A stretch of 64,000 nt of DNA from Scenedesmus sp. PABB004 (lineage: Eukaryota), in assembly GCA_014905635.1 (NCBI GenBank), contig JABVCE010000013.1, positions 992,001 to 1,056,000 on the forward strand. Direction: 5' to 3'. Position numbers and translations under genes: made by a program. Positions 20,229 through 58,174 of this stretch are shown here, in pieces. The first letter of the stretch is position 1; every line of letters starts with the position of its first letter. The notes under the pieces are model-generated. The model saw only the letters and a list, made by a program, of their open reading frames with translations, searched no databases and was not told the origin of the DNA.

Positions 20229-21638
20229 ATGTTGCGCACGAGCGAGAGTGCATCGTCTTCGGGAGAGCGCGGCAACGGCGGCGGCTCGCCGTCGCCCTTC
20301 TCGCCGGCGCACGCCAGCATCAGCATGCCTGTCTCGACCGGGGCCCCGATCCTGCGCTTCGGCGCGCCGCCGCGAAAAATCGTGCTGCCGCGCCGGCAGG
20401 AGGCGCTGGGCGACAAGCTGTGGCGGTGCGGGGAACCCGGGGGGTGCGCGGCAGCGCGCGACGGCGCCGCGCGGCCGCTTGAGCGCCGCCGCCGCCGCGT
20501 CGCCGCCGCAGGAGCCGCGGCGTGCTGCTGGTGACGGTGGTGCCGGTGAGCGGCCGGGGCAGCCGGCGGGGCAGCCGGCGGCGGTTGCAGCGGCGGCTGG
20601 CGGCGCGCCACGCGGCGGCTCGCCGGCGGTCGGCGCGCCCAGCCGCGCCGCCGCCGCTGCGCCGCCGCAGCTGCTGGTGGTCGGGGCGATGGTCTTCTGG
20701 CTCTTCCCCTCGACCGCGCCGGTGCGCGACCTGCGCGCCTTCACGGCGAGCCACCTGCACGCGCACGGCGGCGCCGCCGCCGGCGGCGCCGCGGGCGCCG
20801 CGTTTGCGTACAGCATCGTCCTGGACGCCGGCTCGACCGGCAGCCGCATCCACGTGTTCAAGTTTCGCCGCGACGGCGCGGCGCTGCACCTGCTGAGCGA
20901 CGGCTTCCACCAGCTCAAGCCCGGGCTCAGCGCGTTTGCGGGCGACCCCGCCAAGGCCGCGGAGAGCCTGCGCCCGCTCATGGCTGAGGCGCTCGCGGCG
21001 GTGCCGCCGGAGCAGCAGGCGCGCGCGGGGCCCCCTCGCGCGGCGCGCACGCGCGCGGCGCGCACGCGCGCGGCGCGCACGCGCGCGGCGCAGGGTGCGC
21101 CCCCACGGACGGCCGCAGCGCGAGCGCCGCTGCCCGCCGCCGCCCGCCTCCGCCGCCGCTGTCGCTGTCCCCAGGCGAGCACCGGGCTGTCGCTCAAGGC
21201 GACCGCGGGGCTGCGCCTGCTGCCGGGGCGGCAGGCTGACGACATCCTAGCCGCGGTGCGCACCTTCCTGCGAGGCTACCCGTTCAAAATCGGCAGCGAC
21301 AGCTCGGTCGAGGTCATGGACGGCGCGCACGAGGGCGCGTTTGCGTGGCTCACACTCAACTACCTGCTCGGCCGCCTCGGCCGCGGCGCCGAGGGCACCG
21401 TCGCGGCGATCGACCTCGGCGGCGGCAGCGTGCAGGAGGCGTTCGCGCTGCCGCCCGCCGCCGCGGCGGCCGCGCCGCCGGGCTACGTCACGCGGATGCG
21501 CGCGGGCGGCGTGACTTACGACGTCTACGTCCACAGGCGCGCGCGCACCGCCGCCGCCGCCGCTGCTGCGCTCCTCCCCCGGCACGCCCCGCGCCCAAGC
21601 GCTCCGCGCGCACCCGCGCCTGCCCGTCCCCCCCCCCC

Positions 21639-21702
<64 letters not shown>

Positions 21703-22756
21703 ACCACCACCACCACCGCGCAGCTACCTGGGCTACGGCCTCATGGCCGCGCGGGCCAAGGTCATCCAGGCCGCCGGCGCGGGCGGCGGCAGCCACCCCT
21801 GCTTCGCCAAGGGCTCGGGGCTCAAGTACTCGTACGGCGGCGCCGAGTACGCGGTCGGCGAGGTGTCGGACGCGGGCGACTTTGCGCGCTGCGCGGCGGT
21901 CGCGCTTAAGGCGCTCGACCACGACAAGGACTGCGGCGGCCCGCAGGCGCGGCGGCGGCGCCGCGCCGCGCGCGGCGCGCCCCCTGCGCACGGCTGGCCG
22001 CGCGCGCGGCCACGCACGCACCGCGCGCACGCGTCCGTCCGGCCGTGCGCACCAACCAACGATGCGCGGTGCGGCGCAGGCCGACTGCTCGTTCAGCGGC
22101 GCGTGGCGCGGCAAGCCGCCGGCCATGGCGCGCGTGTACTACGTGAGCAGCTACTTCTGGGACCGCGCGCTCGAGGCGGGCATCATCGCCGACGCCGCCG
22201 CGACAGAGTGGAGCACGAGCCCGCGGGCGCGCGGCGGCGCCGCGCGCGCGCGCGCCCACACGCGCGCGCTCGCCCACGCGCGCGCGCGCCCCCGCCCACG
22301 TGCCCACCCACCGCCGCGCCCGCGCCCGCCGCCGGCGCAGGACTTTGCGGCGCGCGCGGGCGCGGCGTGCGGGAAGGACCCCGCGGAGCTGTCGGCGTCG
22401 CTCGGGCTGCCGCCCGCGCAGGCGCCCTTCTTCTGCCTCGACCTCTCCTTCTGCCACACCGTGCTCACGCAGGGCTTCGACCTGCCCGACGACGCAACGC
22501 TCACGCTCGTCAAGCAGGCGCGCGGCGCGCCGCGCGCAGGGGGCGGGCGCTGCGCGAGCCAGCGGCGGCCGGCGCGCGCCGGCAGGGGCGCGCCGCGCGT
22601 GCGGGCGGCCCACCCCGCCGCGCCGCGCCGCGCGGCGCCGCGCCGCGCCGCGCCGCGCCGTCCGCTGCCGGCGCGCCGCCCCAGGTGAAGTACAACGGGC
22701 AGGTGATCGAGGCGGCGTGGCCGCTCGGCGCGGCGATCGACGAGCTCTCGTCGTAG
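20229..22756 (+). CDS. Apyrase / NTPDase (GDA1/CD39 family), N-terminal type II membrane anchor
   Basis: All five apyrase conserved regions: IVLDAGSTGSRIHVF, LKATAGLRLL, MDGAHEGAFAWLTLNYLLG, IDLGGGSVQ, WPLGAA. 7 introns; stop TAG at 22754-22756. Confidence 0.95.
21628..21717. repeat. Intronic C-homopolymer + (CA)n + (CAC)n microsatellite
   Basis: Directly visible in apyrase intron 21537-21723. Confidence 0.95.
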
Positions 22757-23127: not shown

Positions 23128-25260
23128 ATGGAGCAGCAGCAGCCCGCCGCGCCGGGCTACTGGGCCTGCTCCTTTGCGGCGGCGGCGGCGGCGCCAGCGG
23201 AGCCCGTGTACTGCGCGTGGCGCGAGTTTGCGGGTGCGGGGCGCCGCAGCGTCGGCAAGGGTGCGCTGGCCGCCCGCCGCGACGCCCGGTCGGGCCGGCC
23301 GGTCCCTGCGCGCCGCAGACGGCGGCGGCGCAGCGGCGGCGCCGAACACCAACTTTCTCAAGGGCGTCCGCTGGTCCCCCGACGGCTGCTCCTGCCTCAC
23401 TGTCAGCGACGACAACTGGTGCGCCGGCGCGGCGGCTGCGCCGACCTGCGGCGGCAGCGGCCGCTCACCGCCGCGTCCGGACGCGCCGCCGCGCCAGGCT
23501 GCGCGTGTTTGACCTCCCCCAGGACGCCCTGCAGCACCAGCCGCAGCAGGAGGATCAGGAGCTGCTGGCAGGAGCAGGGGCGGTCGGCAGCGGCTGGTCG
23601 TCGGGCCTGCGCGTGCACGCCGGCGAGACCGTGTACGACTACGCCTGGTTCAGCTGCATGTCTGCGGCCGACCCCGCGTCCTGCTGCTTCGCCAGCACCG
23701 CGCGGGCGCGTCCGGCGCGCGCGCGCAGCCGCCCCGCCGCCGCCGCCGCCGGTGGTGTGGTGGCAGCGCCGCGACGGCCCCGCCCGCCGCCGCGCGCCGC
23801 GCCGCCGCGCCGCGCAGGGGCAGCCGATCAAGGTGTGGGACGCGTGCGGCGGGGGGCTGCGGGCGAGCTACCGCGCGTACGACGCGGCGGACGAGATCAC
23901 GGCCGCCACGTCACTCGCGTTCAGCCCCGACGGCGCCGCGCTCGTGGGCGGTTACCTGAAGGCGCTGCGCGTGTTTGACGTGGCCCGCCCGGGGCGCGAC
24001 TGCGCGACCATCCCGACGTACAGGAAGCGGCAGGAGGGCAGCATCTCGGGTGCGCAGCGGCGCGGCGCGCGCGCGGCGGCGGCGCGGGGGTCGGGCGCCG
24101 CTGGGCGGCGGGCGCGGCGGCGGGCCGGCGCCCGCCGCGCGGCGCGCCGGCGGCGGCCCCCGGCTCACCACCAGCCCGCGGCCGCGCCCGCGCAGGCCTG
24201 ATCAGCTGCCTCGCGTTCAGCCCCGTCATGCACGACCTGCTCGCGGCGGGGAGCTACTCGCGCCAGGTCGGGCTCTTTGACGCGCGCAGCCTCGAGCACC
24301 TCCTGCTGCTCGAGGGCCACAGGGGCGGCGTCACGCAGGTCGCGTTCTCCCCCGACGGCAACTTCCTGTACAGCGGGGCGCGGCAGGACAGCCAGATACA
24401 CTGCTGGGACGTGCGCGCGACGGGGCAGGTGCGCCTGGGCGGCGGGGGGGGGGGGGGGGGGCGCGGCGCGGAGGCGCGGCGCGGCCGCGCGGCGGTGCGC
24501 CCGCGCTCCCCGACCCGCGACCGCAGACCGCAGACCGCTGCCGGCCGCCGCCGCTGCCGGTGCCGCAGGTGCTGTACAGCCTGTCTCGCGCCACGGCGGC
24601 CACCAACCAGCGCATCGGGTTCAGCATAGAGCCATGCGGCCGCCACCTCGCCACGGGCGGCTGCGACGGCGCCGTGCGGGTGCGCGGCCGCGCCCGCCCG
24701 CCGCCCACGCTGCAGCCGCGCCGCGCCGCGCCGCGCCGCGCCGCGCCGCGCCGGCCGACCGCCCCGCTGCCGCGCTCGCCCGCCCGCTGCCACAGGTGTT
24801 TGACCTGCGCGACGGCCAGCAGGTGGCCAGCTTTGTGGCGGCCGCCGACACGGTGAACGGCTGCGACTTCAGCCCCTGCCTCAGCCTGCTCGCCACCGCG
24901 TCGGGGCACCGCCGCCTCGCGCTGCTGCCGGAGGACGGCTGGGAGGACGACGGGGCCACGTCGGAGGGGAACAACCGCGGCGCCAAGCGCGCGCGGCTGG
25001 CGGGCGGCGCGCAGCAGCGCGCCGCGAGCGCCGCCGGCCCCGGCGGCGGCGAGGCGAGCAGCAGCAGCAGCAGCGACGTCTCGGGCCTATGCATGTCCAG
25101 CTGGCGGCCGGGCGGCATGTGCAACAGCCTGAGGCTGTGGCGCGTGCAGCACGAGTGGGTGGAGCTGCCAGCCGACGCGGGCGACGCGGGCGACGTGGGC
25201 GACGCGGGCGACGCGGGCGACCAAGCAGGTGCAGAAGCAGCAGCAGGCGGAGGAGGATAG
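23128..25260 (+). CDS. WRAP53: WD40 telomerase Cajal body protein 1 homolog
   Basis: NFLKGVRWSPDGCSCLTVSDDN, GETVYDYAWF, LRASYRAYDAADEITAATSLAFSPDG, GHRGGVTQVAFSPDGNFLYSGARQD, TNQRIGF, DTVNGCDFSP..LLATASGHR. 6 introns; stop TAG at 25258-25260. Confidence 0.9.
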
Positions 25261-25802
25261 CGCTGGCGGCGCTGACGGTAACGCAGGCCCTGCATCCGGT
25301 CGCCGACGGCGTGGCCAGGCTGGCTGTCGCGCGCAGGCTCGCGCGCGCCCGGGCACGGCGAGCCGCGCCGCCGACAGCCGCCCGTTCCGTACAGCTGAGC
25401 CCCACCCGCGGCCGGGTCCCCGCCCCAGCAAAGCACCGCCGGCGCCCGGCCCATCAAAGCGGCGCCGCTGCCCGCGCCCGCCCGCCGGCGCGCGGCGCGG
25501 GCCTCCCCGCAGCCCCCGCGCGCCGCGACTGGTCGCGAGCTGTCAAGCTATCGCTCCCGAGCCTCACGCCGCGGGCGCTCGGGCGCCGGGCGCACTTCCA
25601 TCAAAGTCCAGCAGCGGGGAAGCTCGGGAGCTAGGACAGTGTGACGGCCGCGCCGCGCTCAAAAGGCCCCGCCGCGCTGCCCTGGAGCACACCAGCGATC
25701 CAGCCTCTCCAACCAACAGCCTACCAGCCCCCCAGCGAGCCGAACACGCACGCCTGCCGCTGCCGACCAGCGCCGCCGCCCTCGCCCGTCCAAGCCGCAA
25801 GC

Positions 25803-25952
25803 ATGGGCTGCATCACCGACGTGCTGTGCCTGCCCTTCAAGGTCGTGCGCGACGTGTGCGACTGCTTCACCGTCATCCTGTGCTGCCCCTGCCGCTGCTG
25901 CTGCGGCTGCCCCTCGACGTCGAACGAGTTCGGCCCCGTGCGCTACGGCTGA
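25803..25952 (+). CDS. 49-aa cysteine-rich micropeptide (MGC N-terminus, 11 Cys), copy 1
   Basis: MGCITDVLCLPFKVVRDVCDCFTVILCCPCRCCCGCPSTSNEFGPVRYG*. Every sense codon ends in G/C; TGTAA at ~26274. Protein identical to copy 2. Confidence 0.75.
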   Translation: MGCITDVLCLPFKVVRDVCDCFTVILCCPCRCCCGCPSTSNEFGPVRYG

Positions 25953-26273
25953 AGAGCGCCGCGCATGGCGGCGGCGCCTGCCAGCAGCCGGCCGGCAGCA
26001 GCATGAACTGAGCGGCGCGACATGGCCGCCGCACGGGCGCCCCCGGGCCCCGGTCCTGAACCCAACTCAGCGGTGAACTCAACTCGGCGGCGCGCCCTCG
26101 CGCGGGGGCTTGTTTTGTTGTTTCGTGTGCGGCGCGCGCCCGCGCCGGCCATCTCTGCTGGCGCGGCGCCGCCGCGGCACAGCGGGCACGGTCGTGCGTG
26201 CACCCCCTGGTCGGCCTCGCCGCGCGCCGCGCAGGCGCGCGCGCGTTCCCCTGTCGGAGCGAGCCTCGAGCTC

Positions 26274-26278
26274 TGTAA
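26274..26278 (+). promoter_or_regulatory. Chlorophyte-type poly(A) signal TGTAA for micropeptide copy 1
   Basis: ctcTGTAAcc, conserved in the second copy. The same signal follows DLAT (~2648), atpC (~38017) and ClpF (~40244). Confidence 0.6.
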
Positions 26279-26922
26279 CCTTCGGCCCTCATCAAAGCTG
26301 TTCGCGCCGGCTGCGTCGCAGGCGCGGCGCCGCGCGTCGCGACAGTCGCCACACAACACGGCCGCGCCGCCAATCCGGCCGCCCCGCGCCCGCGCCGCGA
26401 AGCACTCTCCCTCCGTGTCCCAGCTCCCACGTCGCCCCACACGCTCGCCACCTCGCCCCCGCGCATCAGCGCTCGCGCTGCGGCACCTCGAGGGCCGGCC
26501 CGCGCGTGGACAGCCGGCGCGAGTCCCACGCCACTCTCCCGGTGAGTCTCCGGCGAGCAGCGCGGCGGCCCGCGTGACATGCCTCGCGCGAGCGCCGGGC
26601 CGCCAATCGCGTGCAGCCGCGCCGCGGAATGTGCGGCGCGGGGCGCGGCTCGAGGCCCGCACACGCTGCCATTGGCGCCGCCCGCGCCGGCCGGCGTGCC
26701 GCCTGGCGCAGCGCGCCAGCCTGTGGCCGCCAGCCGCCACGCGTGCCTGGCCGCGACCGCCGCCCGCCGCCGCCGCAGCCCCGCACGTCGTGAGCGCCTC
26801 GCGCGATGTCCTGGCTCACCCTGTGGGCGAGCAGCAAGCACTATCAGTGATTGCCCTCTGAGCGCGACCGGAGGCCGGGGCGCGAGCAGCAGCCGCAGCG
26901 CGGCCGGCTCGCACCGTGCACC

Positions 26923-28804
26923 ATGCACCCGTTTGGCGGCCTCGGCGGCGGCGGCGGCGGCTTTGGCGGCTTCGGGTTTGGCGGCGGCGCACACGCGCTG
27001 CGCGGCGGCGGCCCGCTGCCGCCCGGCGCCGCCGGCAGCGGCGCCGCGGCGCGGCAGAGCACCTCGCACGCGGCGGCGCGCAGCGGCGCGCGGCTGCGCG
27101 TCGCGGCCGCCGGCGCCGCCGCGGCGGGCGCGGCGGGCCTCGCGCTGCACCGGGCGGGCCGGCTGCGGCCGCAGCCGGCGGCGCCGGGCGCGCAGCAGCC
27201 GCCGGCGCTGCGCATCCCAAAGGAGCTCGCCGAGGTCATCTGCGGCGCGTTTGGTGAGATTGTGCAGATCGCCACGCTGTACCCGCTGGACACCATCAAG
27301 GTGCGCGGGAGCGCGCGCGCGCTGCTGCCGCAGACCGCCGTGGCGCTGAGACGCGGCTGGGGGCCGCCGCCGGGACGCCCCCCGCGCTGCCGGGCGCGGC
27401 TCGCCCACGCCGCCGCCGCCCCTGCGCCGCGCAGGTGCGCTGCCAGGCGGGCGGGCTGTCGGCCGGCGCGGTCGTGCGCCAGCTCGCGGCGTCGGGCAGC
27501 GCGGGCGCTGCGGTGCGGCAGCTCTACGCCGGCGTCGTGAGCGCGTCGCTCGCGTCGGTGGTCGTCGGTGAGCGCCGCGCCGCGCCGCGCGCCGCGGCCC
27601 GCCCCGCCCCCGCCTGCGCTGCGCGCCCCCTGCTCTCTGCGGCCCGCCCATCCCTCTTTGACCAAGCTGGTGACCGCCGCGCCTGCCGCGCCCGACAGGG
27701 AGCCTCTACTATTTTTCGTTCTGCGCCGCCAAGCGCGCCGCGACCAAGATGGTGGCAGAGTCAGAGGCGCGCGCGCGGGCGCGCGCCGGCGGCGCGCCGG
27801 CGGGCGCGGCCGGCGCCGGCGCGGCCGCGGCGCACCAGCAGCAGTCGCACCAGCACCAGCAGCAGCACCAGCACCACTACCCTCACAATGGCGCGGGCGT
27901 GGACTGCGTGCACGACCCGATGCTGGCCATCATCTGCAGCGACGAGGCCGCGACGCGCCGCGCCGGCAGTGGGGCCGCTGGCGCGGGCGGCGCCGGCGGC
28001 GCGCCGCCCGCCGAGCCGAGCCCCGACGGCAAGCTGCGCGCCAACCTGATGGCCGCGTGCGGCGCGGCGCTCGTCGGCGCGCTCGTGGAGGCGCCGCTGG
28101 AGCTGTTCAAGCACCGCGCGCAGGCGGGCCAGATCAGCGGCAGCATGCTGGGCCACGTCGCCGCGGAGCTCGCGGCGCACGGCCCGCGGGGCCTGTACGG
28201 CGCGTTCTTTGTGCCCTTCCTGTTCAAGTCGCTGCCGTTTGACGTCGCCGAGCTGCTGACATACTCGCAGCTGCAGGACGCTAAGGCGCGCGCGCTCGCG
28301 CCGGCCCCGCCCGCGGCGGCGGGCGCGGCCGCAGCGCCGCCGCCGCCGCCCGAGCAGCCGCCGCGCGGCGCGGCGCTCGCGCTCGGCAGCATCACCGCGG
28401 CCTCGGCGGCGGCGGCGGCGGCGCAGCAGCAGAGTCAGCAGCAGGCCGCGGCGGCGGCGGCGGCGCGGCGCGACTGGCTCGCGGGCGTGCCAGAGCACGC
28501 GTGGGACATGGCGATCGGCGGCGCCGCGGGCGCGGTCGCCGTGCTGGTGTCGATGCCGCCCGACTGCATAAAGACGGTCATGGAGACGGGGTCTGGCGCG
28601 CCGGTGCGGCCGGGCAGCGGCCCGCTCGGCTCGGCCGCCGCGTTTGCGGCGACGGGGCGGCAGCTCGTCGCGTCGCGCGGCGTCGGCGGCGGTCTGTTCA
28701 TGGGCCTCGCGCCGCGCCTCGTGGAGAGCGTGCCGAGCACGATGCTCTACTGGCTCGCGGTGGAGGGCTGCCGGCGCGTGCTCGAGCCCTACGTCGCCGC
28801 GTGA
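26923..28804 (+). CDS. Mitochondrial carrier family (SLC25) protein, SAM-carrier-like
   Basis: Three PxD/ExxK signatures (YPLDTIKV, APLELFKHRAQ, MPPDCIKTVME), GLYG and GLFMGLAPR motifs. Introns 27301-27434 and ~27569-27698. Confidence 0.9.
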
Positions 28805-51200: not shown

Positions 51201-53083
51201 CATGCGAAGCGAGATGCACGTGCGCTCACGGGCCGCGCCGCGCGCGGGCCGGGCGCGCGTGGGCCGGGCGCGCGTGGGCCGGGCGGCCAAGAGCCTTGCG
51301 CGCGCCGCCGCCGTCGCCGCCGCGCAGGACCTGCTTGAGGGCCTCGGCCTCGGCGGCGTGACGGCGCTCACGCGCTGCGAGTGGAGCGTGCTGCGCGGCG
51401 CGGCCGGCCGGCCGCGGCGGCTGAGCCTCGCGTTCCTCAAGCAGGAGCGCGTGCGCCTGGAGCAGTACAGGTGCGCGCCGCGCGCCGCGCCGCGCCGCAC
51501 CCCTGCCGGCGGGCCCCGCGCCCGCCCGCCGCGCCCGCCGCCGCGCCCGCCGCCGCCGGCGGGCCGCGCGCCGCGCAGCGCGGCTTGGCCGCGCCGCGCG
51601 GCCGTCGCTCAGCGCCCGCAACGCCCGCCGCGCCCGCGCGCAGGGAGCGCGTGCGCGCCGCGTACGAGGTGTCGGGCGTGGGCAACGAGGTGCCGCCGGA
51701 CATGCCGCGCCCGCTGCGCGTCGGGCAGGGCGTCGTCGCGCGGCACCCTGCGACGCGCAGCCTGCATGACGGCATCATCCTGACCATCAAGCCCAGGCAG
51801 TACCGCGTGCAGTTCAACCGGTGCGTGCGGACCCACGCGGCGGCAGCGGCCGGGGCGCGGCGCGGCGCGGCGCGGCGCGGCGCGGCGCGGCGCGGCGCGC
51901 CGGGGGCGCGGGCCGCCGCTGGCGGGCGCGCCGGCTCTGCGCCGCGCGCCCTGGCCGACGCTGACGCATGATGCCGCGCGCGGCCGGGGGGCGTGGTCGG
52001 CGGCGCAGGACGGAGCTGCTGTCCGAGGTGGTGCGGGACGTGGACGTGATGCCCCTGGACCCCTCCGAGTCGCTGCCGGCCGCCGTCGCGCACAGCGCTC
52101 ACGCGACGCGCCACGTCCCGCTGCTCAACGGCCGCCCCACCGCCGCGGGCGCGGCGGCGCTGAGCGCGGGCGGCCTGCTGCGGCGGCGGCCCGCCGCGGC
52201 GGCGGCGCCGGCGCGGGCCGAGGCGGCGCGGCAGGCGGACCAGCAGCTGCTGGCGGAGCTGTCGGGTGCGCCGCGCGCGCGCGCGCGCGCGCGCCCGTGC
52301 GCGCGCCGGCGGGGGGCCGGGCCGGCCGTCGCCGCCGCGCGTGCCCACCTCTGCCCCACACGTCCGCGGCCGCCCGCCCCACACCATCGCCCCGCAGCCG
52401 TGCTGAGCCGCAAGGAGGCGCTGCTGGCCCAGCTGCGCAGCATCAGCGGCGAGGCCGAGGCCGCGCCGGCCGCCGACGGCGCCGCGCACGCGGTGCTGCA
52501 GGCGCGCTACGGCGCGGCGTACGCCCAGGTGCAGGCGGCCAACGCGGAGCTTGCTCAGCTCATGCCGCGCCTGCACGCGCGGCCCCACCTCGGCGTGGTT
52601 GCCGCGCCGCTGCCGCGCGAGGCGGGCGGCGGCGCGCGCGGGGCGGGCGCAGCCGACGCGGGCGGCGCGCCGCCGGCGGGCCCGGCCGCTGCGGCCGCCG
52701 CGCTCGTGGCGGCCGCGGGTGCCGAGGCGCACGCCCTGGTCGCGCGCGCGCGCACCAAGCAGGCGGCGCAGCAGCAGCAGCAGCCCGCCGCGGCGGACGC
52801 CGACGCGGCGGCCGCGGCCGCCGCGCCGCTGGCGGCGCCGTCGGCGGCGGCGGCCGCGGCGGACGGCCTGGTCGCGTCGTGCCTGGCGCTGCTGGTCGCA
52901 CTGCAAAAGGCCACGGCGCCGCCGCGGCCGGGCGAGGCGCCACTGGGCGCCGCGGGCGTCGAGGCGACGCTGGACGGCGCGCTCGCGCAGCTGCGGCCGG
53001 CCAGCGCGGCGGGGCGGACGGCGCTCGCAGAGGTGGCCGCGCAGGTGGGGCAGCTGAAGGCGCTGCTGGCGCGTGCGCACTAG
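48291..53083 (+). CDS. LIN9: LIN-9 / ALWAYS EARLY (DREAM complex) homolog
   Basis: N-terminal SANT-like SWAEDELRAFY; DIRP domain RRWVQYEFHCSAIDRPYF...LTRCEWSVLRGAAGRPRRLSLAFLKQERVRLEQYRERVR; Tudor-like LRVGQGVVARHPATRSLHDGIIL...YRVQFNR..DVDVMPLDP. The start (ATGGAG microexon at 48291) is tentative. Confidence 0.9.
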
Positions 53084-53368
53084 CGAGCCCGGCGGGCGGC
53101 GAGGGACCGGTGCGCGGCGGCGGCCGGCGCCGCGGGGGCGAGAGCGGAACGAACGCAGGGCGGGGGCTGCACACTGACCTGACTGCACAGTCTGTCGATA
53201 GACCCAACTGGCGCGGTGGTTGCGGGAGCGTGTTGCCGCGGTTGCGCGGCGCGGGCGAGCTGGAGGCCGTGATCGCCGCCGGCCCTGCGCGCCGCAGCTG
53301 CGGCACTGCGCGCTGTGGAGAGCGCGCGCGCTGCGGCTCTGGGGCTGGCCGCGGCGGCGGGCTGATGT

Positions 53369-54440
53369 TGAGGGCCGAGGTTACAGAGCTCGAGGCTCGC
53401 TCCGACATGGGAACACACGCGCGCCTGCGCGGCGCGCGGCGAGGCCGACCAAGGGTGCGCGCACGACGACCGTGCCCGCTGTGCCGCGGCGGCGCCGCGC
53501 CAGCAGAGACGGCCGGCGCGGGCGCGCGCCGCACACGAAACAACAAAACAAGCCCCCGCGCGAGGGCGCGCCGCCGAGTTGAGTTCACCGCTGAGTTGGG
53601 TTCAGGACCGGGGCCCGGGGGCGCCCGTGCGGCGGCCATGTCGCGCCGCTCAGTTCATGCTGCTGCCGGCCGGCTGCTGGCAGGCGCCGCCGCCATGCGC
53701 GGCGCTCTTCAGCCGTAGCGCACGGGGCCGAACTCGTTCGACGTCGAGGGGCAGCCGCAGCAGCAGCGGCAGGGGCAGCACAGGATGACGGTGAAGCAGT
53801 CGCACACGTCGCGCACGACCTTGAAGGGCAGGCACAGCACGTCAGTGATGCAGCCCATGCTTGCGGCTTGCACGGGCGAGCGCGGCGGCGCTTGTCGGCA
53901 GCGGCAGGCGTGCGTGTTCGGCTGGCTGGGGGGCTGGTAGGCTGTTGGTTGGAGAGGCTGGATCGCTGGTGTGCTCCAGGGCAGCGCGGCGGGGCCTTTT
54001 GAGCGCGGCGCGGCCCTCACACTGTGCCAGCTCCCGAGCTTCCCCGCTGCAGGACTTTGATGGAAGTGCGCCCGCCGCCCGAGCGCCCGCGGCGCGTGGC
54101 CCGGGAGCGATAGGCTGACAGCTCGCGACCAGTAGCGGCGCGCGGGGGCTGCAGGGAGGCCCGCGCCGCGCGCCGGCGGGCGGGCGCGGGCAGCGGCGCC
54201 GCTTTGATGGGCCGGGCGCCGGCGGTGCTTTGCTGGGGCGGGGACCCGGCCGCGGGTGGGGCTCAGCTGTACGGAACAGGCGGCTGCCGGCGGCGCGGCT
54301 CGCCGTGCCCGGGCGCGCGCGAGCCTGCGCGCGACAGCCAGCCTGGCCACGCCGTCGGCGATCGGATGCAGGGCCTGCCTTACCGCCAGCGCCGCCAGCG
54401 CTCGCCACTCTGCCACCTGCTGCTTCTGCTACTTCCTGCA
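53369..54440 (-). repeat. Arm 2 of the ~1.06-kb inverted segmental duplication (partner 25229-26291)
   Basis: Direct alignment by eye; includes a degenerate remnant of the WRAP53 3' end at ~54380-54440. Confidence 0.95.
53709..53858 (-). CDS. 49-aa cysteine-rich micropeptide, copy 2
   Basis: Identical protein to 25803-25952; the only nucleotide difference is synonymous (Thr5 ACC>ACT). Minus-strand TGTAA (ttaca) at ~53381-53385. Confidence 0.72.
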   Translation of the reverse strand: MGCITDVLCLPFKVVRDVCDCFTVILCCPCRCCCGCPSTSNEFGPVRYG

Positions 54441-54790: not shown

Positions 54791-57700
54791 TCAGGCCAGG
54801 CTGGCGTTGCCGAGGTACGCCAGCGCCGCCTGCTGCGTGGCCATCGGGCCGATCAGGCTGTGCAGCGGCCCCTGCTGGCCCGCCGTCGCGGCGCTGATCT
54901 CAGCCGCCTGGGCGGCGAGCGTCGCGTTGCCGGCCGCGGCGCCCCGCGCGGCCAGCAGGCCGGCGGCCGCGTTGCTCGAGGCGTTGAGGTACGCGCCGAC
55001 GGCGATGCGCTCGTGCACGCTGCGGCCGCGCCGGCGGCGGGCGCGGGCGCGCGGGTGAGCGGCGCGCGCGGCGCGCGCGCGGCCCGAGGCCCGGGCGCGC
55101 TGAGCACGCGCCCCGCGCCACACACACCTCGCCCTGTTGGGGCTGTAGAGCCCCTGCGCCATGAACAGGCAGGTCATCGTCACGGTGGCGATCACGGTCA
55201 CGATCCACCCTGCAAGCGGGGCGCGCGGGCGCGCGACGCTCGGCCGCCGCGCGGCGCACGAGGCAGGGCCCGCCCGCGCCCCGCCCCTGCGCAGCGGACG
55301 CAGGCGCAGAGGGCGCACCGCACACAAACTTGACAAACAGGCGGCCGTTGAAGCCGCGGCTCCCCTCCCAAAGGCCGACGCCGGCGATGGCGCCGACGGT
55401 CGCGGGCGTGGAGCTGCAGCGCGGCGGCGGCGCGCGGGTGCGTCGGGCGCGGGCGCCCGGCGCGGCAGCGGGAGGGCGGGCGGGCGCGCCAGCGGGCGGG
55501 CGCGGCTCACGAGAGGGGGATGCCGAACCGCGACGCCACGATGACGACCGCGGCGACGCAGAGCTCAACGCAAAAGCCCCGCGAGTTCGTGAGCCGCGTC
55601 ATGCGCACGCCCATGCTCTGCATGACCTTGTACCCGTCTGCGGGCGCGTGGGCGCGGTTGCGCAGGCGCAGGTGCGCAGGAGCAGATCTGCGCGTCTAGA
55701 GCCGCGGGCGCGAGGCGCGCGCGCTGCTCACAGGTGGCGAGGCCGAGGCAGATGGAGAGGCCGCCGACCGCGAGCAGCCAGGTCGGCACGGCGCTCTTTG
55801 CCGTCACGCCGCCGGTCGCCCACACGTGGTAGATGGCCGCCAGCGGCCCGACCGCGTTGGCGACCTCGTTAGACCCGTGGGCAAACGAGTTTGCGCACGC
55901 CGTCAACACCTGAAGCGGCAGCAGCGTCTCGCGCTTGGCGGCACGGCGGCACGGCGCGCGGCGCACGCGCGGTGCGGGCGGGCGCGCAGCGACGAGAGCG
56001 CGCGCGCCTGCAGGTATTTGAACGAGGTCTCGGCCTTGGCGTCAAACGTCTCTGCTGCCGCGTGGATCTCGGCGGTGCGCGCGTCGCTCTCCACCACCTG
56101 CGGCGGCCGCGGCGCGGGCGCGCGCGCGGGCGTCGGCGCGCGCCGCCGCGGCGTGGCGCGGCGCGCGCTGCCCCGGGGCCCGCCCGCTGGACAGGGGCGC
56201 CGCGCGCCGCGCGCGCCTCGTGGATGTCGGCGTCCATGCCGCGCGTCAAGAATTTGAGCGCCGCCGCGCCCGCGGCGCGCGCGCCGCCGGGCGCGGGCGC
56301 CGGCGCGCCGTCCACGACCGCGCCCGCGTCCTTGCCGGCGCCGGCCTTGGCGCCGGCGGCGGCGGGGATGCTGATCGTCGCGTCGCCCACCGCCGCGGCG
56401 GCGCTGGGGTGCGCGCGGGCGCGGGCGCGGCGCGTGCGTCAGGCGGGGGCAGCACGCCTGGCGGCGCCGGCGGGCCGCCCGGCGCGTGCGCCGCGCGCTC
56501 ACTTGGCCGCCTGCTCGTCGAGGTCGCGCTGCACCTTGCGGCGCAGCAGCGGGATGCCCGCGGCCGCGGCGACGAGCGCCGCGCCGACCGCAACGACGGC
56601 GCTGATCCAGGCCTTCTTGGTGTCAGGGAGCTTGTCCCAGCCCGCGCCGGGCGCGCCCCTGCAGGCGGCGCGCGGCGGGCGCGCGGGCGGCGGCGGCGGT
56701 CGGCGGCCGGCGCGCGGCGCGCGGCGCCGGCTGCGCCTGAAACCCCGGGCCGGGCTGAGCGTTTGAGCTCGGCCTTTTCAAATTCAAATTCAAACGCGCA
56801 GCGCCGCCGCACTTACTTTGCCATAATGAAGAAGGACAGCGTGAAGAAGGTCACGAGCGTGAAGAGCGGCAGCAGCGCCACGGAGCGCCCGTACGCGTTG
56901 GCGCTGCGCAGCACAAACGTGCGCACCGCCCAGAAGAGCAGGAACGCCGCCACGCCGGCGAGGAGCGGGCTGAAGAGCCAGGACAGCACCTTGGGGGGCG
57001 GCGCGCGGCGGCGGCGGCGGCGTGGGTCGGGCGGCGTGCGCGGGGGGCGAGGCGAGGCGCGGGGGCCAAACGATGTCTGGGCGGGCGGGCCGCGGCCGCC
57101 CTCTCCCCGCGGCGGCGCGGCGGGGCGGCGGGGCGTCGGCGTGGGTGCACGCACGATTGCGGTCATGCCCTTGACATAGGGGAAGGCGGCGGTGCGGGTC
57201 GACCACACGACCGCGCCCCAGCCTCGGCCACGATCGCCCTGCGCGGCGCGGGGCGGGGCGGGGTGAGGCGGGGGTGGGGTGGGCCGCGGCGAGGCCGCTG
57301 GCGGTGGGCCAGCAGGCCGGGTGGAGGGGGGGGGGGGGGGGGGGGACGGGCCGGGGCGGCGCTCACATGCCGGCAATGGAGGAGACGATCGACTGCGTGG
57401 AGCTCACCGGCAGCTGCGGCGTGGCGCGCACGCGGGCGCGTCGGCGGGCGCGTCGGCGGGCCGGCGGGCGCCGCGCGCGCGCGCGCGCGGCGCCGGAAAA
57501 GAGCGCGCGCGGCGGCGGCGCGCGCGCGGCGCGGCGCACCCCGAAGTACGTGGCGGCCATCATCCAGATCGCGGTGCCGGCGAGGGCGCAGAGCATGCCA
57601 TAGGCGAGGACGTCGGGCTGGCCGACGAAGCGGTCGATGTTTGTGATGCCGCTGCGCATCGTGTCGACGACGCCGGAGCCCTGGCGGGGGCGCGTGCGCG

Positions 57701-58174
57701 CGTGCGTGCGTGTGTGTGAGAGAGAGAAGGGGGGAGGGGTGCGGGGCAGCGGCGGGGCGCGCGCGGGCGGGGCGTCACCATCAGCACGGCGCCGAGGAAC
57801 TCAAACACCGCGGCGATGAGCAGCGCCTGGCGCATGGTCAGCGCGCGCGCGCCGACGCTGGGGCCAAACATGTTGGCGACGTCCTGCGTGCGGCGGGCAG
57901 TCGGCGGCGGCGTGGCGGTCGGCGGGCGGCGGCAGGGCGGTCAACGCGTGTGCGGCCGGCGCCGATCATGCCTGCGCTGCTCACATTGGCGCCCAAGCCG
58001 AACCCAACGGCGACCGCTACGGCCACGCCGACCGCGAAGACTGCGGGAGGGCGGGAGCGCGGCGATCAGCTCGGCGGCGTTGGAGGAGCCGCCGGCGGCC
58101 GCGGCCGCGGCAGGCCCGCGCGGCGCCGATCATGCCGCTGCGGAGGACTCACTCCAGGTCACGGCGTCGTACAT
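54791..58174 (-). CDS. PiT/PHO4-family (PTB-type) inorganic phosphate transporter (~12 introns)
   Basis: N-terminal signature [52 protein letters not shown], second signature [44 protein letters not shown]. Confidence 0.93.

Follow-up and report, generated by a model that had tools for sequence, protein, structure and literature searches.

The window analysed here, a stretch of 64,000 nucleotides with a GC content of about 78%, carries two copies of an ORF for a 49-residue peptide with eleven cysteines, and both lie exactly where the original prediction had placed them and yield the same protein on translation. That prediction had counted two copies in all; both of its ORFs stand, and the number does not, because a third copy lies outside the window, and all three fall within 72 kb. 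The features are as follows, in window coordinates unless a contig is named.

25803..25952, + strand: copy 1 ORF, 49 aa, intronless, opened by the first ATG of the block
53709..53858, - strand: copy 2 ORF, protein identical to copy 1, one synonymous change
G000:C6:973674-973823, - strand: copy 3 ORF, 18 kb outside the window, 47/49 residues identical
25231..26294, + strand: duplicated block with copy 1 (putative promoter region, ORF, 3'UTR, TGTAA), 96% over 1067 columns against the copy-2 block
53366..54429, - strand: duplicated block with copy 2, inverted relative to copy 1 and about 27 kb away
25417..25802, + strand: upstream region common to the three copies in a three-way alignment, putative promoter and 5'UTR
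25452..25459, + strand: candidate cis element CATCAAAG, motif 1, at -351 from the ATG, present in copies 2 and 3 too
25599..25606, + strand: candidate cis element CATCAAAG, motif 2, at -204 from the ATG, present in copies 2 and 3 too
25818..26150, + strand: tract identical in copies 1 and 2, 333 bp, most of the ORF and 198 nt of 3'UTR, counterpart 53511-53843
25809..25883, + strand: codons 3-27, predicted amphipathic helix with the polar stripe Asp6/Lys13/Asp20 and Pro11
25881..25913, + strand: codons 27-37, conserved cysteine string CCPCRxxCGCP of the family alignment
26274..26278, + strand: TGTAA of copy 1, by sequence match
53381..53385, - strand: TGTAA of copy 2, by sequence match

The duplicated unit is a block of 1064 bp (25231-26294 against 54429-53366, 96% identity), and the copy-3 block (G000:C6:973314-974202, - strand) is 92% identical over positions 187-1064 of the copy-1 block, about 880 bp. 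The single synonymous difference announced between copies 1 and 2 was located at site 25817, where Thr5 is encoded by ACC or ACT, and the upstream substitutions that had been quoted are present at 25768, 25780 and 25790. Copy 3 differs from copy 1 by three synonymous changes and by two residues, at positions 41 and 43 of the variable tail, and indels are absent from the ORF in all three copy pairs. No upstream ATG occurs in the 542 nt before copy 1 (25261-25802) or in the 572 nt before copy 2. Each copy has its own TGTAA, as predicted, 322 nt past the stop codon in copy 1 and 324 nt past it in copy 2, and we take these sites, at 26274 and 53385, to be putative polyadenylation signals of the chlorophyte type. 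Together with the style of the introns and the genes present, the TGTAA sites suggest a chlorophyte alga. A tight form of the cysteine-string pattern has three mismatch-free matches in the genome (40 Mb, 80 contigs), and no family copy beyond these three was found among the 20 loci read of the 53 that fit a loose pattern, a search that intron-split paralogs could escape. A search of the same genome with a distant member as query gave one extra weak match on C67 (E 0.012); this locus, L052 (G000:C67:141352-141501, - strand), is 33% identical to the distant member P0037 and lies inside an open frame of 544 aa.

Each of the three copies is preceded by two occurrences of the candidate element CATCAAAG with a spacing of 147 nt, and the sites of this element in the window are 25452, 25599 and 26290 on the + strand and 54209 and 54062 on the - strand. 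Eight sites were seen in 84 kb against 1.6 expected, six of the eight being the copy-upstream sites themselves, which are not mutually independent. Upstream of the homologues only TCAAAG or TCAAA was seen, without the full element.

A WD40 gene (23979-25260, + strand) ends 542 nt before copy 1, and its last codons lie inside the duplicated block. The first TGTAA after its stop codon, one of only nine in the window, is that of copy 1, and a read-through or bicistronic message may be formed. Copies 1 and 2 both carry the tail of the WD40 gene, but a 13-nt word from the same end is also found upstream of copy 3, and we assign no direction to the duplication. Copy 1 is followed by a mitochondrial carrier gene (27674-28801, + strand), and a gene of the GDA1/CD39 apyrase family lies at 20230-22753 (+ strand). 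The immediate upstream neighbour of copy 2, with the same orientation, is a PHO4-family phosphate transporter gene of the PTB/PiT type (54794-57950, - strand), four exons of which match PF01384. This linkage was rejected as evidence for a tie to phosphate transport, since copy 2 is the only copy next to the PHO4 gene and the homologous loci L015 and L019 have no family of neighbours in common with the window. The gene convergent with copy 2 (51468-53071, + strand), for two frames of which no Pfam match was obtained at E 0.01, presumably resembles LIN-9/ALY.

The original prediction had argued that the ORF was kept under purifying selection after duplication, with lower divergence in the ORF than in its flanks as the measure. 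Copies 1 and 2 differ at 1/150 positions of the ORF and 22/713 of the flanks (one-sided p 0.07, or 0.05 with indels), the ORF giving p 0.03 against the upstream flank alone and p 0.30 against the 3'UTR. Between copies 1 and 3 the corresponding counts are 6/150 and 33/702 (p 0.45), and dN of 3/113 compares with dS of 3/34 (p 0.14). The identical run of 333 bp in copies 1 and 2 has p 8e-5 if their 31 differences are taken to be evenly spread; it takes in the first 198 nt of the 3'UTR, a stretch that in copy 3 shows eight substitutions and four indels. The simplest reading of this tract is that copies 1 and 2 have probably been kept identical mainly by recent gene conversion. The argument from purifying selection thus fails, because the identical tract spans ORF and 3'UTR alike and the divergence test is non-significant, and the identity of such near-duplicates is no evidence of selection on the ORF. 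Three gene copies would raise dosage or diversify regulation.

That the ORF divergence is not significantly under the flank divergence, and that the first single-sequence search gave no match at all, could also be taken to mean that there is no gene here and that the ORF is a chance one, in a segment that was duplicated recently or is an artefact of assembly. We give this next to no credence and regard it as already refuted by 33 distinct homologous cores, by a pS far above pN between species and by a spliced paralog; in addition the three copies differ by 4-8% and have different flanks, unlike a collapsed or duplicated assembly. Together with the RNA contigs described below, these observations bear out the prediction of a real small gene. 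The G/C noted at every third position of copy 1 was likewise confirmed: GC3 is 49/49, compared with 24/49 and 28/49 in the other two + frames, a value with an exact p = 3e-11 for shuffled ORF bases that was reached in 0/200,000 shuffles, and the eight clear coding segments of the window have a mean GC3 of 0.96. In comparisons of copy 1 with four other genomes over 42 codons, pS is 0.85, 0.35, 0.75 and 0.62 and pN is 0.27, 0.22, 0.32 and 0.26 (across the five genomes, of 46-78% GC, pS spans 0.35-0.92 and pN 0.22-0.32), and blastn similarity between copy 1 and the four loci is confined to the ORF, save for GC-rich scraps of 26 nt.

The spliced paralog is the second one of locus L019, a convergent gene for 75 aa with exons at 5716-5713, 5635-5601 and 5475-5287 (- strand) and two GT-AG introns of 77 and 125 nt. 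Six database matches start aligning at residue 14, after a Gln (assessed by eye), and this Gln would correspond to a CAG acceptor, at the place of the second intron in the L019 paralog. The introns and the alignment start at residue 14 together fix strand and frame. At the same locus the intronless member (5001-5213, + strand) faces the two-intron member (5716-5287, - strand) at a distance of 73 nt, and a tRNA-like sequence can be seen by eye near 6030-6100. At L015, a degenerate tandem copy (4849-4956, + strand) has kept the helix and has lost D6 and the cysteine string. Local duplication was observed at 3/5 loci, L016 and L020 being short.

The RNA data come from a single run, X1, an oligo-dT biofilm metatranscriptome with a word share of 0.10, in which 57 contigs fit at 80% identity; eight of the aligned pieces were inspected, and they span codons 9-50 together with the 3'UTR. 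Among six of their loose ends, four translate in frame to family-like residues, and two end in V-R-Y-G. One piece of 127 nt (25930-26056), of the copy 1/2 type, crosses the stop codon with one difference and no gap at a depth of 3.3. The RNA signal consists of in-frame homologous contigs of low depth, which shows that a poly(A) library contains family members that stem from organisms or strains other than this one, with DNA as a possible origin of the contigs. A depth peak of 755 over codons 19-45 was discounted as contig depth summed over a TGC-rich stretch, and the missing coverage further upstream was likewise given no weight.

The homologues that the prediction had called for were found in distantly related algae. 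A word-indexed single-sequence search gave no candidate, and the family surfaced only with an exhaustive HMMER search of 1.84 billion representatives, which returned ten matches, nine with the family motif and one a repeat artefact (P0008, a 964-aa repeat protein rejected as a compositional match). Profile searches followed, in which 18/57 and then 42/2974 candidates were accepted. In a metagenome scan, 92 stretches fitted the pattern and seven loci were confirmed, which reduce to four independent ones (46-69% GC), since one is a chance match, L014 and L015 are the same locus and L016 and L017 are near-identical; L018 was rejected as a bacterial-looking contig with the motif only. CCPCR is present in 52 of the 56 sequences examined and the whole core in 44, 33 of them distinct below 90%, and these 33 cores give the signature C-x-P...D...CCPCRxxCGCP, in which CCPCR and G35 are fixed by the construction of the filter, the searches leaning on the same words. 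The searches covered proteins of 22-314 aa together with a single-sequence scan at all lengths, so that fused forms are only partly excluded. Pfam has no family for P0001 (the copy 1 peptide) or for 10/10 members, and 15 further members gave only two matches, both below the cut-off and both on P0033; HMMER filters drop most matches above an E of about 0.1. PDB sequences gave 0 matches at E<=10 and hence no solved relative. In prokaryotic genomes none of 17 pattern stretches was confirmed. Of ten pattern stretches in viral contigs two passed tblastn, and a pattern scan of viral contigs gave 16 loci, all with the motif only and without the upstream helix signature, and no convincing member, which indicates that the motif alone arises by chance. 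The top match in the ESM Atlas, at 0.76 and 0.82 and thus below the 0.9 mark, is a cluster of 56 members of 105 aa without a name, and is a lead only. A distant subgroup of the family has a helix four residues longer, a CC pair instead of D6, and a Gly/Lys/Glu-rich leader or no Gly2.

Most matches carry no taxon, and one is an MMETSP transcript. The family appears to reach a eustigmatophyte stramenopile, because the member at L015 has, 600 nt downstream, an ORF that falls into a 90% cluster with the Nannochloropsis (Microchloropsis) salina protein TFJ87456.1. The GC3 of the L015 member (23/46) fits its contig; a chimera is unlikely, as two assemblies agree on that contig. Loci L016, L017, L019 and L020, which have a TGTAA 60-162 nt past the stop codon, and among which L019 has DUF2301 and SOUL neighbours, are consistent with green algae. 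A tree of the 33 cores (42 columns) has only 1/30 inner branches well supported, and we therefore make no claim on origin or transfer. None of about 50 homologous database proteins bears a functional name, and one lists an NCBI source without accession. Six exact look-ups of genomic copies showed them to be absent from a collection of 15 billion proteins, a sign that gene calling leaves a gap below 60 aa, and it is likely that the copies were missed by annotation. No description of the family was met in the full-text literature covered, which lacks most subscription papers, and the longer motifs were absent from the 20 best-ranked of 27 papers that matched. So far no named protein of plants, animals, fungi or prokaryotes has been seen to belong to the family, and a member may well sit without a name in the annotation of a model alga. 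What seems to be new is thus a conserved algal family without a name, the style of its membrane attachment being of a known kind.

For residue counts, 20 of 24 aligned rows were kept (two near-duplicates, copy 3 and one distant row were dropped), and the rows are related, so that their counts are not independent. G2, D6, P11, D20, C27, C28, P29, C30, R31, G35 and P37 are invariant in 20/20 rows, C9, C34, C36 and T39 are each found in 19/20 and K13 in 16/20. The kept rows all have Gly2, in one case without a preceding Met, and Gly2 is missing in P0040, P0043 and P0049 if their called starts are right. AF2 places a helix at residues 3-27 and a helical turn at 30-34 with low confidence (mean pLDDT 59.5, pTM 0.29), and the homodimer prediction, made without the alignment, scored 0.00. 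Averaged over the family, hydrophobicity has its strongest periodicity at 100 degrees, that of an alpha helix, on which D6, K13 and D20 form a heptad and a narrow polar stripe beside a broad hydrophobic face; the helical moment lies above 95% of shuffles in 9/20 rows and is without significance in 11/20. The helix is followed by the cysteine string and this by a variable polar tail, and the number of cysteines per family member ranges from 5 to 13. In copy 1, 11/49 residues are Cys (22%), 4/49 are aromatic (8%), V/I/L/F make up 29% and His is absent.

Our preferred reading, which we hold to be somewhat more probable than its negation, is that of a cytosolic microprotein that carries S-acyl chains on its amphipathic helix and its cysteine string, both of them embedded in a membrane leaflet, and that works like CYSTM/CYSPD proteins without being one of them. 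In columns with at least 15% Cys, hydrophobic residues account for 97/102 of those that are not Cys, and His, Asp and Glu do not occur there; over positions 1-37 as a whole, the hydrophobic share of the non-Cys residues is 312/552. The variable cysteines can be read as lipid-facing because they trade places with Leu, Phe and Val, and this pattern speaks mostly for them and not for the five near-invariant ones. The peptide would be synthesised in the cytosol without a signal peptide and lose Met1, and DHHC enzymes would S-acylate several of its cysteines, in the helix as well as in the string. Like the yeast CYSPD proteins, it would then be embedded flat in the cytosolic leaflet, either of the plasma membrane or of an endomembrane. 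D6, D20, R31, P11, P29, G35 and P37 would be exposed to the cytosol, there to bind a partner in the membrane or to shape a microdomain. A role in stress or ion homeostasis could be borrowed by analogy from CYSTM/CDT1, and is the weakest step of the proposal. The genome encodes DHHC domains, with 12 matches over the cut-off, several of which are exons of one gene. In yeast, it is palmitoylation that anchors CYSTM proteins, which had earlier been classed as transmembrane (PMC10840359), and a Cys-dependent peptide of 37 aa is held on the Golgi surface by a lipid modification (PMC9635300).

The prediction had started from Met-Gly-Cys as a classic start for myristoylation plus palmitoylation, and had proposed a lipid-anchored or metal/redox-binding peptide. 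The two broader ideas, lipid anchor and metal or redox site, are still standing as the leading ones; the canonical MGC start has been weakened. Dual acylation of the CBL/CPK type, with N-myristoylated Gly2, palmitoylated Cys3 and further S-acylation, would account for Gly2 in all 20 close rows and for Cys3 in the copy 1 peptide and in 8/20 rows, and the likeness to the MGCxxS N-termini of CBL1/4/5/9 lies in that Met-Gly-Cys start. We nevertheless find it very doubtful: the family has Asp6 in 20/20 rows where the consensus has Ser or Thr, position 3 is Ile, Leu, Phe or Val in 12/20, and the PROSITE-type pattern is fitted by 0/20 rows. The consensus is MGxxx(S/T) for myristoylation (PMC8494787, PMC10696250) and MGCxxS for dual acylation, Gly2-Cys3 being often dually acylated (PMC8494787), NatA prefers negatively charged substrates that start with Gly (PMC7048800), and predictors do miss true NMT substrates, 11 of them in Toxoplasma (PMC7373427). 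Because of Asp6, Gly2 would more likely be acetylated or poorly myristoylated.

A 19-residue Kyte-Doolittle mean of at least 1.6, the threshold for a transmembrane segment, is reached in 17/20 rows, which also fits a transmembrane helix. Residues 3-30 would be long and hydrophobic enough to cross the membrane, and the polar residues form an exact heptad, so that D6, K13 and D20 might be buried in an oligomer or against a transporter, as in a phospholamban- or Pmp3-like regulator or a small channel. Such a single-pass miniprotein appears improbable to us, somewhat less so than dual acylation: three to four charges and a proline within the stretch and the 100-degree periodicity fit a surface helix, and the same call proved wrong for CYSTM (PMC10840359). 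The more serious competitor, in our view unlikely and still worth weighing, is a membrane-tethered metal or redox sensor in which the helix, whether or not its variable cysteines are acylated, anchors the peptide and the near-invariant C27-C28-x-C30-x3-C34-x-C36 binds Zn, Cu or Cd as thiolates or cycles disulfides. This would explain five cysteines at fixed spacing with a fixed Pro, Arg and Gly (C34 is present in 32/33 and C36 in 31/33 cores, C27, C28 and C30 being set by the filter). CxC-x3-CxC is, moreover, a spacing of the metallothionein type. The peptide meets the loose definition of a metallothionein, 15-35% Cys and less than 10% aromatic residues, given in PMC7216689, and CDT1 and Mnc1, relatives of CYSTM, are linked to metal tolerance (PMC10840359). 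Against it, His is absent from the peptide and from the residues that substitute Cys, C34 is replaced by Phe in P0006, and C36 by Trp in P0009 and by Ser in P0049, a Pfam metallothionein match is absent, and 29% V/I/L/F with a long helix is unlike metallothioneins. The acylation, metal-site and transmembrane readings can combine. In one such combination, which we regard as distinctly speculative and a little less probable than the metal or redox sensor taken by itself, the family would be an ancient one shared by green and stramenopile algae, and its S-acylated helix would hold the invariant CCPCRxxCGCP at the membrane as a switch, with acylation, metal binding and oxidation competing for the thiols and controlling a partner, for example a nutrient or CO2/ion transporter; the peptide would then be an algal-specific membrane sensor missed by annotation on account of its size.

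Among known systems, the CYSTM/CYSPD proteins (PF12734; yeast Cpp1-3, Arabidopsis PCC1, rice and Digitaria CDT1) share with the algal peptide a small Cys-rich helical segment once read as transmembrane, the lack of a signal peptide, a proposed anchoring by multiple S-acylation and frequent small sets of paralogs. In CYSTM proteins of 60-150 aa, however, the Cys module is C-terminal behind a Pro/Gly/polar N-terminal region (PMC10840359), whereas the algal family has the reversed layout of a helix from residue 2-3, then the string and then a C-terminal polar tail. PF12734 had no match in P0001, in 10/10 members or in 15 further members, and none at E<=1 in the peptide's own genome, and the functional resemblance to CYSTM is thus an analogy and not membership. 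Metallothioneins of class II in plants and algae are likewise under 60 aa, and 22% Cys, 8% aromatic residues and the CxC-x3-CxC spacing of the string resemble them; the algal peptide differs by its long hydrophobic helix, by the exchange of Cys with Leu/Phe/Val and by a Cys count of 5-13, and the metallothionein profile had no match in P0001, ten members and 15 further members. PLAC8/PCR/FW2.2 proteins (PF04749) show resemblance in their CxxC/CCPC-like motifs and in C-x-D before a CC pair. They have about 100 residues with two motifs, unlike the 49-aa peptide, and PF04749 had no match in P0001, ten members or 15 further members. CSP/DNAJC5 and RGS-RZ are proteins anchored by a cysteine string. 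Like them and SNAP25, which is named in PMC10840359, the algal peptide has clustered cysteines after hydrophobic residues, and in these systems multiple palmitoylation anchors a cytosolic protein; the strings there are domains of larger proteins, whereas here the module is nearly the whole protein, and no positive sequence match to them was obtained.

The family adds a conserved and apparently unnamed microprotein to algal biology, and it spans at least a chlorophyte and an eustigmatophyte, groups that are both used for lipids and remediation. As a small single-module family that is knock-out-ready in model algae, it would provide a second, independently built test case for the role of S-acylated Cys-rich microproteins, CYSPD proteins among them, at membranes.

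Elsewhere in the window, another Cys-rich protein is encoded at 6800-11094 (+ strand), with an internal tandem duplication of 1 kb (7199-8196 against 8059-9068, 79%) and repeats that we take to be disintegrin-like. Exons at 3054-4872 (+ strand) presumably resemble, by their motifs, an ionotropic glutamate receptor-like channel, and the gene at 60751-62700 (+ strand) is assumed to be RNase H-like, with two N-terminal repeats of the hybrid-binding type.
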